Position numbers and translations under genes: made by a program. 7,057 nt of DNA from a virus (taxonomy: Duplodnaviria; Heunggongvirae; Uroviricota; Caudoviricetes), in the IMG/VR virus record IMGVR_UViG_2645728091_000009, one strand, 5' to 3'. This document shows, piece by piece, positions 222 through 7,057 of this stretch; the stretch's first letter is position 1; each line of letters starts with the position of its first letter. Below the pieces are notes generated by a model, which worked only from the letters and a program-made list of their open reading frames with translations, searched no databases and was not told where the DNA came from.

Positions 222-298
222 TGGCGCGTTGTACTGGATTCGAACCAGTGACCGATTGCTTAGAAGGCAATTGCTCTGTCCGGCTGAGCTAACAACGC
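222..298 (-). tRNA. argO: tRNA-Arg, anticodon UCU (argO-like, third gene of an ileZ-argN-argO type phage cluster)
   Basis: Manual cloverleaf on minus strand: acceptor GCGTTGT/ACAACGC, D stem GCTC/GAGC, anticodon stem ATTGC/GCAAT with loop CTTCTAA, T stem ACTGG/CCAGT with loop TTCGAAT, discriminator G, encoded CCA. Symbol assigned by anticodon and gene order from memory of Stx-type phages, not by search. Confidence 0.8.
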
Positions 299-311
299 AT
301 GATGCAGATAA

Positions 312-388
312 TGGACCGCCATCGGGGACTTGAACCCCGCGCAGCCAGCTTCGAAGGCTGGCGCTCTATCCCGATGAGCTAATGGCGG
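312..388 (-). tRNA. argN: tRNA-Arg, anticodon UCG (argN-like)
   Basis: Manual cloverleaf: acceptor CCGCCAT/ATGGCGG (C1-G72), D stem GCTC/GAGC, anticodon stem CCAGC/GCTGG with loop CTTCGAA, T stem CGGGG/CCCCG with loop TTCAAGT, encoded CCA. Symbol by analogy only. Confidence 0.75.
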
Positions 389-395
389 TATGTGA

Positions 396-471
396 TGGTG
401 GCCCTTGCTGGATTTGAACCAGCGACCTGGCGATTATGAGTCGCTCGCTCTCACCACTGAGCTAAAGGGCC
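396..471 (-). tRNA. ileZ: tRNA with anticodon CAU (Met or lysidine-modified Ile2; ileZ-like)
   Basis: Manual cloverleaf: acceptor GGCCCTT/AAGGGCC, D stem GCTC/GAGC, anticodon loop CTCATAA, T stem GCTGG/CCAGC with loop TTCAAAT, discriminator A, encoded CCA. Met versus Ile2 identity cannot be decided from sequence alone. Confidence 0.8.
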
Positions 472-2041: not shown

Positions 2042-2063
2042 AAAAAAACCCGCAAAAAGCGGG
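2042..2063 (-). terminator. Rho-independent terminator immediately downstream of the Q-like gene (tR'-like position)
   Basis: Minus-strand RNA CCCGC-UUUUU-GCGGG followed by seven U (plus A run 2042-2048). Position matches lambda tR' (established lambdoid layout). Confidence 0.6.
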
Positions 2064-3071: not shown

Positions 3072-4127
3072 TCATGCTTTCCACTTCAGGACACCCGAAT
3101 TTCTCGCGTGCATTAAAAAACGAATCAGCAACAACAGCTGGCTGCCGTGTTTTTCTTCAAAATCTTTTACCCCGGCGTGCAGTTCGTTATGACATTTACG
3201 GCACAGCGGAATAACAAACAAATCATCAGCCTTTGTTCCCATCCCTCCCAGTCCATGACCAATGATGTGATGCGGATCATCTGCCTGATTACCGCACGTC
3301 ATGCATTTCTGCGTTTTTACCCAGCGCGTGTATACAGGCATCTCTTCCCGTTGTGGTTTCTGGCGCTGGAGATACTGAGCCGGTGACTCCGGATCAACGG
3401 CAATGCTGACCACCGTCTTTTCCTGTGGCGGGTTTTGCTGGTGGGCGTGAGGCAGCAGCGCAAGATTTTTTGTGCGCTGCTTCAGTATGCTGGTGGCGGT
3501 CTGCTCTCCCGGTACGATGTCGCTTTCGCGGTACACCGAGCGGATTTTTTCCGCACGCAATCCCAGAGAACGACGTAATACTGCCTCCGGCAATACGTCC
3601 GCTACCTGATTGCAGACCGCCCACCAGGATAATTCAGCCAGCGATAACTCCCGCTCCTGTGTACCGTTTATTGCGTGGCGGATGACGTCAATCATCCAGG
3701 ATGTCAGGTTTTGTTGAGCAAGTTGCCCGAGTGATTCTGAAGTCTGGTCGCGTAACTGATTATCACAGTGCCAGCACAATACCATCGCGCCGGTACCGTA
3801 ACGATGTATGACGGTTTCACTGTGGTGGTAGTCACCATGAGGCCACTGGCAGGATTTAACATGGCGTAACAGCCAGTCAGACAATGCGCCAGCGCCGCCA
3901 GCAGCACGAGTCACCCGCTCATCGCTGAAAAATGGCAGTAATGATTTATCTTCCGCGAGCGGCTGGCGCACGGCAGGAACAGCTCCTGACGGCAGACCGC
4001 GCATGCTTTTCGGTTCCGGCTCCACCAGCACCCGGGGATTATGAAATACCTGTATGGATTCACGGCCCGGCTTAAGGACCACCAGCCCGAGTTCCGGTAC
4101 CAGAACAGGTCGAAGTAATACCCGCAC
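3072..4127 (-). CDS. YdfU-like (DUF968) prophage protein with a C-terminal YbcO/DUF1364-like Cys/His zinc-binding, putative nuclease domain
   Basis: 351-aa ORF, translationally coupled to both neighbours. C-terminal CMTCGNQADDPHHIIGHGLGGMGTKADDLFVIPLCRKCHNELH follows the C..C...H...G..GTK..DL...C..CH.E pattern I recall for YbcO-type proteins. Size matches Qin YdfU (349 aa). Confidence 0.75.
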   Translation of the reverse strand: MRVLLRPVLVPELGLVVLKPGRESIQVFHNPRVLVEPEPKSMRGLPSGAVPAVRQPLAEDKSLLPFFSDERVTRAAGGAGALSDWLLRHVKSCQWPHGDYHHSETVIHRYGTGAMVLCWHCDNQLRDQTSESLGQLAQQNLTSWMIDVIRHAINGTQERELSLAELSWWAVCNQVADVLPEAVLRRSLGLRAEKIRSVYRESDIVPGEQTATSILKQRTKNLALLPHAHQQNPPQEKTVVSIAVDPESPAQYLQRQKPQREEMPVYTRWVKTQKCMTCGNQADDPHHIIGHGLGGMGTKADDLFVIPLCRKCHNELHAGVKDFEEKHGSQLLLLIRFLMHARNSGVLKWKA

Positions 4128-4128
4128 G

Positions 4129-4407
4129 TTACCTCCAGATACGCTGCTGGAATGTGCGGGACGGAAGCGGTGGGCGTTCAGAGTAAGGCAGTCTGACTGA
4201 GATTATCCAGTGTCGGAAGTCGAAGCTGAGGTCTTTCTGAAACTCGTAACCACGTCCGCGGTAGTTCTGAATTAGCCACTCTGCCTGCTCTTCAGTACAT
4301 GGATCATGCTGGAACCAGTCAGATTTGAATGCATGAGAACGCCGCCCGTGCCTGCTGGCAAAGACGGCTGAATTATCAGAATTGTGTTGTCTGGAATTTT
4401 GCGCCAT
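4129..4407 (-). CDS. Hypothetical protein (92 aa), first gene of the ydfU-rusA-Q operon
   Basis: Good RBS (GGAGAAAG about 7 nt upstream of the ATG at 4407); stop 1 nt before the start of the downstream 351-aa gene. No recognisable motif. Confidence 0.55.
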   Translation of the reverse strand: MAQNSRQHNSDNSAVFASRHGRRSHAFKSDWFQHDPCTEEQAEWLIQNYRGRGYEFQKDLSFDFRHWIISVRLPYSERPPLPSRTFQQRIWR

Positions 4408-4473
4408 CGGCTTTCTCCGGTGGCACAGTGTTACTCAACAGGGGTTCAGCCCTGCGCTGAATTGTAGATGAAT

Positions 4474-4782
4474 TCACTCATCTTCAAAAGCAGAAAAACC
4501 AGCCTTAATCCCAGCTTCTTTCAGAGACGGCAACGATGTGACAAATTCATTTGCACGCAAAATAAAACCATCCGTCACAAGCCCATCCACCAAATGAATT
4601 AACGCAGCTCCACTCTTCCTTTGTTGAGACTGTAAACATTTAATACGGCAGTGGCTGACAATAGCGCCATTCTCAACGCGCACAGTATAGAGGCCATCCT
4701 CACTAAAAATTTCACGTAATTCTTCGATTTTCATCAACAGAATCCTTCCAGATAAATAGCACTCCCCCTGTTCGGGGTCCAT
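4474..4782 (-). CDS. Hypothetical small protein (102 aa from the ATG at 4782, or 86 aa from the internal ATG at 4734)
   Basis: Both candidate starts have purine-rich RBS (GGGAGAAGAGGG before 4782; GGAAGGA 8 nt before 4734). Lies in the AT-rich island just downstream of the cassette terminator. No recognisable domain. Confidence 0.5.
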   Translation of the reverse strand: MDPEQGECYLSGRILLMKIEELREIFSEDGLYTVRVENGAIVSHCRIKCLQSQQRKSGAALIHLVDGLVTDGFILRANEFVTSLPSLKEAGIKAGFSAFEDE

Positions 4783-4817
4783 CCCTCTTCTCCCTGCGCG
4801 CTACTTAAGTATTTTTG

Positions 4818-4847
4818 ATTCTATTCTGGCACCGTCCAAAACTTCAA
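4818..4847 (-). promoter_or_regulatory. Candidate sigma70 promoter for the 4474-4782 ORF
   Basis: On minus strand: -35 TTGAAG (plus 4842-4847), 18-nt spacer, -10 TAGAAT (plus 4818-4823). Hexamer matching only. Confidence 0.3.
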
Positions 4848-4867
4848 ACACGTTGAAAATAAAAACA

Positions 4868-4887
4868 AAAAACCCGCCGAAGCGGGT
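4868..4887 (-). terminator. Rho-independent terminator after the HTH-peptidase gene; left copy of a 20-bp direct repeat
   Basis: Minus-strand RNA ACCCGC-UUCG-GCGGGU followed by UUUUUUGUUUUU. The 20-mer AAAAACCCGCCGAAGCGGGT (plus strand) is identical to 6703-6722. Confidence 0.7.
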
Positions 4888-4891
4888 ATAC

Positions 4892-5998
4892 TCAAACAAT
4901 CTGGAAAATATTTCTTGGATTTGTAATAGGTCTGTTGATGGAGAACAACTCACGAATTAAATCTTGGCTCAAGCCAGTTTTCATAAGAATTCTTAGCCAA
5001 GTTGCATCATCCAGCATTTCAATCGCCTCGGCCAGCATGCCGGGTTCTTCAGGGCGCAAAAGTTCATCACCAGGTTCAACTCTCGTATACCCTCTGGAAT
5101 TAAGATGCATATAGCCAGTTCTTGCCTGTTCCTGGGTCAATAAGCCTAATGCGCTGGCTCGATAAATACACATTTTAAGGCTGATTTTCCATCTAAGTTT
5201 AAATTCAACCAGAGCATTCCAGTCGAATTGCTTACCTCGTATTCGTGGAAATTCTTTAATGAAAGATAACCTGGGAACTAATAAGGCGCTCGAAAAGTGA
5301 TCGGCTTGTGATTCCGTAAGTTTATCACCTGTCGTTATGCCCTCATGCATTACTAAATGCCCTAATTCATGACCTAAATCAGAGCGAAATCTACATATGC
5401 TTTTTTTAACATTGTTCCTGATGATAACAGGCCTGTTATTGTGAACAGTAAAAGCATCAACACGATCATCGACTCCCGTAACATGCGCAACGATTACCCC
5501 TAAACTCTCCGCCAATTTAACCATTGATGATATAGGGCCAAGACCTAAATTCCAGGCACGGCGACAATCTTCTGCCACTCGCTCAATATCATTCGGAGTA
5601 AGTAATTCAGCCCCTGGGTGCTCCGGTATGTTAACGTCAGGAAATTCGATTTCACCTTCAACAGCAGAAATTATAATATTAAGAATCTCAGCCCTGGCCA
5701 ATACACTATTAGTCAGCGTTTGAGTCCTGGACTTCTTACTCCGAAAATGGCAGACATCACTTTCCAGAGCGTATTTTCGTTCAGTAAAAAGAAAACTGGA
5801 CTTAATCATAAGCGCTGAAGATATTAACTCAAGACATTGCTCCGATGGCCTGCACCCCTTCTCCAGTTTGCTAACGAATTGCTTTGTCTTGCCAATTTTT
5901 TCGGCTAACTCTTCACAAGAAAGCCCAACAGCCATTCTCGCTAGTTTGAGCTTATCACCCCGATACTCAGTGAAGTTATTCACCTGATGTTCCATCAC
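4892..5998 (-). CDS. XRE-family HTH fused to an ImmA/IrrE-type (COG2856, Peptidase_M78) Zn-metallopeptidase; candidate antitoxin/regulator of a two-gene module
   Basis: 368-aa ORF. N-terminal HTH (LKLARMAVGLSCEELAEKIGKTKQFVSKLEKGCRPS). HExxH at residues 210-214 (HELGH) with downstream ESQADHFSSALLVP matching the E...A..FA..LL.P third-ligand region of ImmA/IrrE peptidases. About 120 aa of C-terminal extension without recognisable motif. Start (GTG 5998 or ATG 5995) overlaps the upstream gene. Confidence 0.88.
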   Translation of the reverse strand: MMEHQVNNFTEYRGDKLKLARMAVGLSCEELAEKIGKTKQFVSKLEKGCRPSEQCLELISSALMIKSSFLFTERKYALESDVCHFRSKKSRTQTLTNSVLARAEILNIIISAVEGEIEFPDVNIPEHPGAELLTPNDIERVAEDCRRAWNLGLGPISSMVKLAESLGVIVAHVTGVDDRVDAFTVHNNRPVIIRNNVKKSICRFRSDLGHELGHLVMHEGITTGDKLTESQADHFSSALLVPRLSFIKEFPRIRGKQFDWNALVEFKLRWKISLKMCIYRASALGLLTQEQARTGYMHLNSRGYTRVEPGDELLRPEEPGMLAEAIEMLDDATWLRILMKTGLSQDLIRELFSINRPITNPRNIFQIV

Positions 5999-6626
5999 TG
6001 CTCACATCCAAATCTTTATCCTTCGTACGCCGACGAAGAGGCACCTTATTAATCTCCGCTTCGTCAGGGAGTGTGTTATAATCAAGAGACATAAGCGGCA
6101 TCGATGCTGTAGATTGATGAGAAACTATACTAATCTGAGCACCATAAGTATTAAATCCAACAAGAGCTACCTCCCAACGAGGCAGTGTGGACTCTAATTC
6201 ACCATCGCCCTCTTCGGATAAAAAAGGCTCAGCTATGACTCGCCATGTAATATCTTGCTCAGCCTCAACATCACCAAACAATGAGAGCTGCTCATACTCT
6301 ACTTTATTTCGACGCAGACGATGTTTCTTTTTGGGGTTATTAATGCAATCTTTGGTAAATTGTAGCGGAACTTTATTTAAAGCAACTACATAGTCCAACC
6401 CCTTGGAAATCATCTCAAGGCCAGGAATTGCATCTTCATTTTGAATAAGATGATTTCTGACCCAATCATAAGCCCTTACACCTTCAGACCAGTTGCTGTC
6501 TAATGCGTGCTTATGATAGTACAGCTGCTCAAGTACGTTAGCGATCTCCGCCAACAAGTGGCGAACATAGTTTTCAGCAAGATAAGGTTGAAATTCCCAA
6601 CAAGGAGCTAACTGATTTTCATTCAT
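5976..6626 (-). CDS. Hypothetical 216-aa protein with no recognisable domain, co-operonic with the HTH-peptidase; candidate toxin/effector partner
   Basis: Long ORF in an AT-rich segment whose 3' end overlaps the downstream gene start by 23 nt. Acidic C-terminal half and a basic patch (NPKKKHRLRRNK). No TM segment or catalytic motif I can identify. Weak RBS. Confidence 0.7.
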   Translation of the reverse strand: MNENQLAPCWEFQPYLAENYVRHLLAEIANVLEQLYYHKHALDSNWSEGVRAYDWVRNHLIQNEDAIPGLEMISKGLDYVVALNKVPLQFTKDCINNPKKKHRLRRNKVEYEQLSLFGDVEAEQDITWRVIAEPFLSEEGDGELESTLPRWEVALVGFNTYGAQISIVSHQSTASMPLMSLDYNTLPDEAEINKVPLRRRTKDKDLDVSSDGTSGE

Positions 6627-6661
6627 TTCAAGTTTCGCTTTTTTTAGAATTCGTAAACCAC

Positions 6662-6690
6662 ATATTTTCGCATTTTTCTATTTTTGTCAA
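6662..6690 (-). promoter_or_regulatory. Candidate sigma70 promoter of the two-gene cassette
   Basis: On minus strand: perfect -35 TTGACA (plus 6685-6690) followed 15-17 nt later by an A/T-rich -10 region (TGcGAAAAT / AAATAT), about 40 nt upstream of the 216-aa start. Confidence 0.4.
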
Positions 6691-6702
6691 CCAGACTAAT
6701 GC

Positions 6703-6722
6703 AAAAACCCGCCGAAGCGGGT
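6703..6722 (-). terminator. Rho-independent terminator downstream of hok; right copy of the 20-bp direct repeat
   Basis: Minus-strand RNA CCCGC-UUCG-GCGGG followed by UUUUU. Identical 20-mer to 4868-4887. Confidence 0.5.
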
Positions 6723-6791
6723 TAAGTGCGGGTGCGTTGAGGATGCCTGGCACATCAGAGGTGGCGGGAGATTACTCCCCCGCCGGGTCTC

Positions 6792-6947
6792 TTACTCCTC
6801 AGGTTCGTAAGCTGTGAAGACAGCGACCTCCGTCTGGCCGGTTCGGATTCGTACCTCGCAGAGGTCTTTCCTCGTTACCAGTGCCGTCACTATGACGGTT
6901 AAACAGATGACGATCAGGGCGATTAACATCGCCTTTTGCTGCTTCAT
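6792..6947 (-). CDS. hokD: Hok/Gef-family type I toxin (small membrane-damaging peptide), HokD/RelF-like
   Basis: 51-aa product from the internal ATG at 6947: MKQQKAMLIALIVICLTVIVTALVTRKDLCEVRIRTGQTEVAVFTAYEPEE. It has the Hok signature (hydrophobic helix, TRK.LCE, conserved C-terminal region) and matches HokD as I recall it. RBS AGGAGA 9 nt upstream. The in-frame 64-aa extension in the ORF track is probably not used. Paralog assignment (hokD versus hokC-like) unverified. Confidence 0.8.
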   Translation of the reverse strand: MKQQKAMLIALIVICLTVIVTALVTRKDLCEVRIRTGQTEVAVFTAYEPEE

Positions 6948-7057
6948 AGCCTGCTTCTCCTGTGTAAGTTCACAGAGATATTGCAATTGCCTCCGGATAA
7001 GTAAGGGGAGATTGCACTATGCAAATGCAGCATCTGATGGTTGGCTATCCTAAGTAC

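Follow-up and report, generated by a model that had tools for sequence, protein, structure and literature searches.

A RosmerTA defence cassette inserted at a hokD terminator of a lambdoid prophage and bracketed by direct repeats of it: probable recombination within a short shared sequence

How does a two-gene defence system with no mobility gene of its own come to lie, to the base, between two identical copies of a short terminator? This question is raised by a 7,057-nucleotide stretch of tailed-phage DNA (Caudoviricetes; IMG/VR record IMGVR_UViG_2645728091_000009), hereafter called the window. It carries a cassette predicted to be a RosmerTA toxin-antitoxin defence system, made up of the toxin gene rmrT and the antitoxin gene rmrA, between the Hok toxin gene hokD and a rem-like gene (Table 1). 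The same 20-mer, containing a terminator hairpin, is found at both borders of the cassette. Comparison with other genomes shows that the cassette is an insertion into a hokD-terminator-rem arrangement. We consider that this moron-type unit was probably, although not securely, placed there by short-homology recombination inside a terminator common to donor and recipient.

The 20-mer AAAAACCCGCCGAAGCGGGT occurs exactly twice on the plus strand of the window, at 4868-4887 and 6703-6722, in the same orientation and with a spacing of 1835 (family D2 in a repeat search of the window). An exact-match search thus bears out what a first-pass annotation of this DNA had reported. There is no third match in the window at up to three mismatches, and none in dinucleotide-preserving shuffles of it (0/200). 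Both copies open with a run of A's, six in the left copy (4867-4872) and five in the right one, and the C preceding the run is common to both. The repeat is a 21-mer with a one-nucleotide difference in the A-run, and its ungapped identity cannot be extended. Read on the minus strand, where all genes of the window are located, both copies give ACCCGC-UUCG-GCGGGU and then a U-run, and both are scored as terminator-like by terminator prediction. With a stem of 6-7 bp, a UUCG loop and 5-6 U, each has the predicted architecture of a Rho-independent terminator, and the expected hairpin is predicted in the 46-nt context of each (-10.9 kcal/mol on the left, -15.1 kcal/mol on the right). These minus-strand predictions agree with the earlier attribution of the right copy to hok and of the left one to the cassette. 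The borders proposed for the cassette are also correct, the rmrA stop codon (4892-4894) being 4 nt from the left hairpin and the -35 hexamer TTGACA 12 nt from the right copy. The right copy runs into the hok 3' flank TAAGTGCGGGTGC at every empty and occupied site compared. Strain UTME-9 has the same cassette, and over the 50 kb surrounding it the 20-mer is confined to the two cassette borders.

Evidence for insertion comes from sites that lack the cassette. Our reference set was composed of 5,426 complete E. coli genomes. The region 4100-7057 is complete in 228 of them, and the flanks alone match in thousands more. The first-pass annotation had predicted that related prophages devoid of the cassette would have a single 20-mer. 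Indeed, hokD is followed by one copy of the repeat and then by rem in the Qin prophage of K-12 MG1655 (L002), where this gene is annotated as rem, in strain 118 (L001) and in Z1323CEC0014 (L135); at empty sites, rem is the gene right after the hok terminator. The empty site reads GTTGAAAATAAAAAC-AAAAACCCGCCGAAGCGGGT-TAAGTGCGGGTGCG. Its left flank is that of the window's left copy and its right flank is that of the window's right copy. A query mimicking the empty site, made by fusing 4100-4887 to 6723-6960, aligns without interruption in 2,778/5,426 genomes at 85-98.5% identity; this search bridges pieces up to about 1 kb apart, and a few of the 2,778 may hold small inserts. The cassette alone is present in 237 genomes, at 99% identity or more in 224 of them. 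Because empty sites are common and diverse and occupied sites rare and nearly clonal, the empty state appears to be the older and more diverse one. These comparisons show that the cassette is an insertion, and the single-copy empty sites together with the continuity of the flanks support the initial proposal that it entered at or next to the hok terminator by recombination. Two loci may be mentioned here. In ZH193 (L012, ~1885-1900), the single terminator of the empty site carries a stem mutation (CCCGCCGAACCGGG) that should weaken the hairpin. In strain 3059 (L004, 1961-2035), the cassette and both repeat copies are present and the downstream rem is cut to a 75-bp fragment.

Z1323CEC0014 also indicates where the recombinant joint lies. 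Its empty site is 100% identical to the window from 4298, across the six-A run and the terminator, to 6749; five mismatches follow at 6750-6785, where it has another hokD 3' allele. Its single terminator matches the window's left copy exactly in the six-A run and in the outer flank; hence, the left copy and its flank are of the recipient type. The right copy, with its five A's, accompanies the cassette and a hokD 3' allele unlike that of Z1323CEC0014, a linkage observed in most cassette-bearing viral loci. The switch of lineage falls within or at the edge of CCCGCCGAAGCGGGT, which places the recombinant joint in or at the terminator. As a separate observation, rem is a module that some prophages have and others lack: where it is missing, ...GAATTGTAAACCAGAATGCCAGGAAAAAACAAAA adjoins the terminator without intervening sequence (window 4408-4867; L011, L012, L001), so that one border of the rem indel abuts the A-run of the terminator.

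The slot between the hok terminator and its neighbour has other occupants. Phage Tritos (L003, OV696610, 1889-3770) carries a RosmerTA pair there with an RmrA that is only 32% identical and an RmrT without similarity, and it has no rem. Its right terminator and -35 region (TTTGTCAACCAGA) are the same as in the window and its left terminator is off by one loop base (CCCGCCGAGGCGGG). In A10 and CFSAN004176, a 94%-identical cassette has a left loop CGTA, again a one-base difference, and the outer flank, without rem, matches rem-less empty sites such as AB_24_S34. The boundaries of the slot are thus better conserved than its cargo. In HS4 (L010, 1892-2585) and phage vB_EcoM-606R7 (L013), a 130-aa gene, the product of which has an N-terminal signal-like sequence, and about 200 bp of a divergent, decayed rmrA 3' end lie between a perfect left copy and a right copy truncated to GGAAAAAACGCCGAAGCGGGT. 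This insert was considered as independent evidence of terminator duplication and was downgraded, since the rmrA remnant points to a replacement inside a former RosmerTA cassette.

The same family of terminators borders cargo elsewhere. We compared 50 viral loci containing RmrA relatives. Every allele at 90-100% RmrA identity terminates in ACCCGC-loop-GCGGGT and a U-run, including those in non-hok contexts, with the loops TTCG, TACG, TATAT, CATTG, TGCTT, TGCAT or TTCAT. All of them have a hairpin 13-17 nt upstream of a conserved -35 sequence, TTGACAAA. At L173, in another nin region not adjoining hok, the cassette again lies between two hairpins, upstream and downstream, that repeat each other almost exactly in direct orientation (CAACCCGC..GGCGGGTTTTTTCAT); the empty-site joint predicted for this context has no match (0) in the viral contigs. 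At L138 (IMGVR_UViG_3300008272_000091), the left terminator, near the contig end, is followed by about 17 T's and has several G substitutions, and this variant looks like a sequencing or assembly error.

Another slot is found in a lambda-like tail module, where L175 has RosmerTA between the tape-measure gene H and gene M and the related L112 has a 267-aa lipoprotein gene in this position instead. In L175, L112 and about eight contigs with other cargo ORFs, the same terminator is followed by TTTTTT(A/T)TGCC(C/T)GGAG and then by the start codon of the next gene. The H-M slot is possibly a second hotspot for cargo, with this terminator as its border. The unit CCCGCTTCGGCGGG, T6-7, (A/T)TGCC(C/T)GGAG, start codon recurs after unrelated cargo ORFs (L175 4126-4170, L112, L033, L042, L044, L049, L077, L079, L104).

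In E. coli KL53, a cassette 80% identical in DNA does not adjoin hok. The related prophage in KMi029 shares the left flank of KL53 up to and including the terminator CCCGCATATAGC(G/A)GG (CCCGCATATAGCGGG), diverges immediately after, and has beyond this point a different small gene and another member of the family, CCCGCCGTAGCGGG. Because this terminator is common to KMi029, which carries other cargo, the KL53-type terminator is site-resident. A synthetic empty site for the KL53 context gave no contiguous match. Three terminators of the family are gathered within about 450 bp in this region (KMi029, L188, 3105-3545; KL53, L007, 2305-2464), each at a module border; they stand after dinI, after a 99-bp DNA-methyltransferase remnant and after the small cargo gene, with the loops CGTA, ATATA and CGTA. 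In total, homology breakpoints fall exactly on terminators of the ACCCGC-loop-GCGGGT family in four separate comparisons.

What could have placed the cassette so precisely? ORF, Pfam and PADLOC searches revealed no transposase or integrase in or at the cassette, rmrT and rmrA being its only genes, and the repeat search found no terminal inverted repeats at the ends of the segment 4888-6702. The lack of mobility genes and end repeats, the continuity of the flanks, the lineage switch in the terminator and the recurrent breakpoints all fit a crossover in a common short sequence. From these patterns we infer the recombination mechanism and the direction of events. The ancestral order hokD, terminator, rem would have become hokD, terminator, promoter-rmrT-rmrA, terminator, rem, and the two 20-mers would be both products of a crossover inside the short terminator sequence. 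Two routes can be envisaged. In the first, the resident hok terminator would have served as the partner of a circular or linear copy of the cassette with one terminator; in the second, a phage bearing the cassette would have crossed over with a rem-carrying empty-site phage within the terminator. The catalyst would probably be RecA or a phage recombinase of the Red/RecT type. In the product, the right copy is predicted to end transcription through hokD and thereby to shield the cassette promoter. The left copy would end the rmrTA transcript and keep prophage-state transcription out of rem, ydfU, rusA and Q. The first-pass annotation had envisaged either a duplication of the hok terminator or a cassette bringing its own copy. 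These two events are not cleanly separable: same-stem terminators with other loops are found on other RosmerTA alleles, but the terminator is site-owned in KL53/KMi029. All of this is compatible with recombination in a terminator common to donor and recipient.

Several points weigh against this scenario. For Red-beta and RecA, the minimal efficient pairing segments are 23-27 bp and 31-34 bp, respectively (De Paepe et al., 2014, PMC3945230), and the 20-21 bp shared here (20-26 bp for the terminator) are at or below these values. Insertion events should therefore be rare, the shared identity being close to the Red-beta minimum and under that of RecA. Rarity would fit two further facts that also count against recombination at the terminator. 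First, there is no isogenic occupied/empty pair (at least 99.5%) among the genomes, the best empty site being 98.5% identical, and thus no direct sign of a recent insertion or precise excision. Second, the cassette at 99% identity or more is found in the hok context alone, both in the 5,426 genomes and in the viral RmrA loci, so that nothing points to its moving from terminator to terminator at present. The cassette DNA has no match in the phage collection, the two E. coli plasmid records that contain it have the same hokD...DUF968 prophage context, and an RmrA scan of the genome collection returned E. albertii alone, with the same cassette at a contig end. In addition, the upstream hairpin is unrelated to the downstream terminator in the KL53 type and in L176, so that flanking terminator repeats are not universal. 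Random joining, if selection then retained those products in which transcription units are intact, could also yield breakpoints at terminators. Finally, the terminator and promoter activities invoked are predictions from the sequence.

Among the other explanations, the one that survives best, although we find it unlikely, is that of independent terminators: the cassette would have been joined illegitimately beside the hok terminator, its own copy being identical by convergence or by common ancestry of the motif. The motif is indeed a favoured terminator design with a GC stem, a UUCG tetraloop and a U-run. A viral-contig scan found its 14-nt core CCCGCCGAAGCGGG in at least 120 contigs; among the 123 matches listed, the hok 3' flank is present in only 10, and 44 have the full 20-mer, 39 contigs of these being away from hok, in unrelated contexts. 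The common ending of all the 90-100% RmrA alleles, with varied loops and in non-hok contexts as well, points the same way. Thus, the earlier argument that an exact identity is unlikely by convergence is weakened by the full 20-mer on at least 39 unrelated viral contigs. Similarly, the finding that was to refute the insertion footprint, a terminator motif widespread in these phage genomes, holds true across phages and not within this one, as seen from the 50 kb of UTME-9. However, each copy passes into its outer flank with base precision, neither junction showing filler or loss, and random joining would rarely be exact at both edges of a 20-mer. Moreover, the left copy has the recipient-type six-A allele, and the "own" terminator of the KL53/KMi029 type is site-resident.

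It is improbable that the cassette and both terminators are old, the single-terminator sites being the outcome of repeated deletions across the direct repeats. Recombination of 20-bp repeats 1.8 kb apart would yield the exact empty-site sequence, and Z1323CEC0014 has an empty site with the same rem allele and the six-A run. Nevertheless, its hok 3' allele is unlike that of the window, and this site is therefore not a simple excision product. Empty sites occur in ~2,778 genomes over a range of 85-98.5% identity, K-12 Qin included, as against 237 genomes with a nearly clonal cassette, and the GC content of the cassette is 9 points under that of its surroundings.

We give a comparably low probability to copy-choice, in which replication would stall at the hairpin and switch template between phage genomes in the short common sequence, without strand-exchange proteins. 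Stalling is plausible at GC-rich hairpins that have stable UUCG loops, and the product would look the same as the observed one. However, no specific evidence speaks for copy-choice, and the data cannot tell it from recombinase-mediated exchange.

Last, transposases recognising hairpins exist, and hairpin-targeted insertion or target-site duplication by a trans-acting transposase or recombinase, for instance IS200/IS605- or IS110-like, would formally match the target-insert-target layout and, with a 20-nt duplication starting from the second A, would also explain the A-runs, six long in the left copy and five in the right, but this is very improbable and was rejected as the main explanation, since the segment lacks any gene for a transposase or integrase as well as inverted repeats at or near its ends, 20 bp exceeds the usual target-site duplication of 2-14 bp, the loops differ between the two copies in divergent alleles, and breakpoints at other terminators differ in sequence.

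If recombination inside the hok terminator is retained, how does it relate to known systems? The closest is that of the PeSLs of T4-type phages, in which promoter/stem-loop motifs flank ORFans, are single at the empty site, and for which mini-circles were detected (Arbiol et al., 2010, PMC2839356; see also Comeau et al., 2014, PMC4122927, for these mobile regulatory cassettes). As with PeSLs, a terminator stem-loop motif flanks an accessory gene as direct repeats and is single at the empty site, excision and insertion by recombination between copies are proposed, and the insert brings transcription signals of its own, predicted ones in the present case. Differences are nevertheless obvious. 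A PeSL is a composite of about 100 bp, with a strong promoter and a stem-loop, whereas here only the terminator of 20-21 bp is repeated, the left cassette border having no counterpart of the promoter region 6627-6702. PeSLs number about 50 per lytic T4-like genome and are concentrated in hyperplastic regions, as compared with two copies in 50 kb of a temperate lambdoid prophage. Family members with other loops do recur, at the three successive module borders of KL53/KMi029.

Morons offer a second term of comparison. These phage elements are reportedly autonomous units with a promoter and a factor-independent terminator. They lie between genes that are adjacent in related phages, have a deviant base composition and benefit the lysogen. 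The cassette resembles them in that its two neighbours, hokD and rem, adjoin each other in K-12 Qin, strain 118 and Z1323CEC0014, in its deviant GC content, in its predicted own terminator and in its possible benefit, anti-phage defence, by homology with RosmerTA. However, classical accounts of morons include no duplicated terminator of a neighbour and favour non-homologous joining followed by selection, whereas here the junctions are exactly on a common terminator. The latter feature recalls the proposal made for lambdoid phages that short conserved intergenic linker or boundary sequences serve as crossover points between unrelated modules. It also recalls the relaxed homologous recombination by Rad52-like phage recombinases, which tolerates short or diverged homology (De Paepe et al., 2014). 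In those exchanges, the homology is longer and diverged, whereas the 20-26-bp terminator is here the sole sequence shared on one side. Hence, a RosmerTA moron with a duplicated-terminator footprint is a new example of a known event, moron insertion or shuffling mediated by regulatory motifs, and not a new system.

This example is nonetheless a base-precise case of a defence system installed in a prophage without a mobility gene, and its direct repeats predict that a precise loss of the cassette is possible, which bears on the stability of prophage-borne immunity. The four comparisons suggest a more general linker role of terminators for defence cassettes. It is possible, though rather doubtful at this stage, that ACCCGC-loop-GCGGGU terminators are portable recombination linkers in temperate lambdoid phages. 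Defence cassettes and morons would then leave as circles via their flanking terminators and re-enter any similar terminator, in nin regions or tail-gene slots, through recombination over short homology. Such linkers would amount to a recombinase-free cassette system analogous to the PeSLs of T4 and would account for defence genes landing precisely at transcription-unit borders. If terminators are generally crossover points, this would help to settle the debate on phage mosaicism, short linkers vs. random joining plus selection. It would also account for the terminator-bounded cargo slots of prophages and provide a simple rule to find such slots and their contents, including new defence genes.

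Table 1. Coordinates of the window features considered in this study
Feature	Position	Strand	Remarks
Right 20-mer copy	6703..6722	-	Predicted terminator 3' of hokD, the resident one and the sole copy at empty sites; stem of 7 bp, UUCG loop and U-run; ...CTAATGC of the cassette precedes its five A's
Left 20-mer copy	4868..4887	-	Predicted rmrTA operon terminator, 4 nt past the rmrA stop codon
Inserted segment (1,815 bp)	4888..6702	-	Missing from empty sites L001, L002, L135
Cassette promoter region (putative)	6627..6702	-	-35 TTGACA at 6690-6685; weak candidate -10, AAATAT-like
rmrT, RosmerTA toxin gene (216 aa)	5976..6626	-	PADLOC RmrT PDLC03929, E=8.5e-26
rmrA, RosmerTA antitoxin gene (367-368 aa)	4892..5998	-	PADLOC RmrA PDLC03943, E=6.2e-105
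hokD-type Hok toxin gene (51 aa)	6792..6947	-	Pfam HOK_GEF E=2.7e-23; hokD, 156 bp, in all related records
rem-like gene (86 aa)	4474..4734	-	Amino acid identity 71% to K-12 Rem, 96% to the strain 118 homologue
Separate hairpin CCCGC-UUUUU-GCGGG + U7	2049..2063	-	Fold -18.2 kcal/mol, z = -6.3; interval between Q-like gene and next ORF

The prediction of RosmerTA relies on the profile matches listed in Table 1 and on the arrangement of the two genes, which are co-oriented and overlap by about 20 nt, as in a two-gene operon. RmrA combines an XRE-type HTH domain (Pfam HTH_3, E=5e-7) with an M78/ImmA-IrrE Zn-peptidase domain (Peptidase_M78, E=6e-11), both above the cut-offs, and its translation contains a HELGH motif. 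A Pfam search found no domain in the rmrT product. RosmerTA has been described as a Zn-peptidase antitoxin with a toxin of unknown function, and toxin-antitoxin behaviour and protection against phage were demonstrated for another allele (Millman et al., 2022, bioRxiv 10.1101/2022.05.11.491447). The two-gene operon, the HTH and Zn-peptidase antitoxin and the toxin without known domain are the same here; that study defines the function of RosmerTA and is silent on flanking terminators and mode of movement. The GC content is 41.4% in the segment 4888-6702 vs. 50.6% in the remaining window. All 50 viral RmrA loci, and Tritos as well, have conserved the sequence GGTTGACAAA upstream of rmrT; a consensus promoter scan made no call at 6627-6702, and the promoter function of this region is putative.

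In the order of transcription, the window contains hokD, the right repeat, the 216-aa gene, the 368-aa gene, the left repeat and the rem-like gene. A 92-aa gene, DUF968/ydfU, rusA, a Q-like antiterminator gene, a 106-aa ORF, a DNA methylase gene and three tRNA genes then follow. These genes make up the nin region in a lambdoid prophage resembling Qin. The three tRNA genes (222-471, minus strand; Arg-UCU, Arg-UCG, Met/Ile-CAU), downstream of the Q-like and methylase genes, are typical of Stx-type lambdoid prophages.

The first-pass annotation had also pointed to a related CCCGC...GCGGG terminator. This hairpin does exist, at 2049-2063 (CCCGC-AAAAA-GCGGG on the plus strand), but it was rejected as a third copy of the repeat, having only a generic 5-bp stem in common with it. 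Together with its U7 (2049-2068), this strong hairpin occupies the interval that separates the stop (2143) of the Q-like antiterminator gene from the start (2041) of the next ORF, and Q may act on it as the terminator of the late operon.

At its right end (6962-7057), the window matches an insertion sequence (IS), annotated as IS481-family or "integrase core domain" transposase, which is also found on many plasmids. The IS begins about 15 nt upstream of the hokD start codon, and homology among all hokD loci ends at 6961-6963. The mechanical ORF of hokD, with a TTG start, extends to 6986. An Rfam scan of the window found no hok/sok or other RNA family besides the three tRNAs. Since the conserved hokD unit (6792-6961) has almost no upstream region, hokD would be devoid of a promoter or antisense regulator of its own, and it looks like an orphan gene of the K-12 hokD/relF type.

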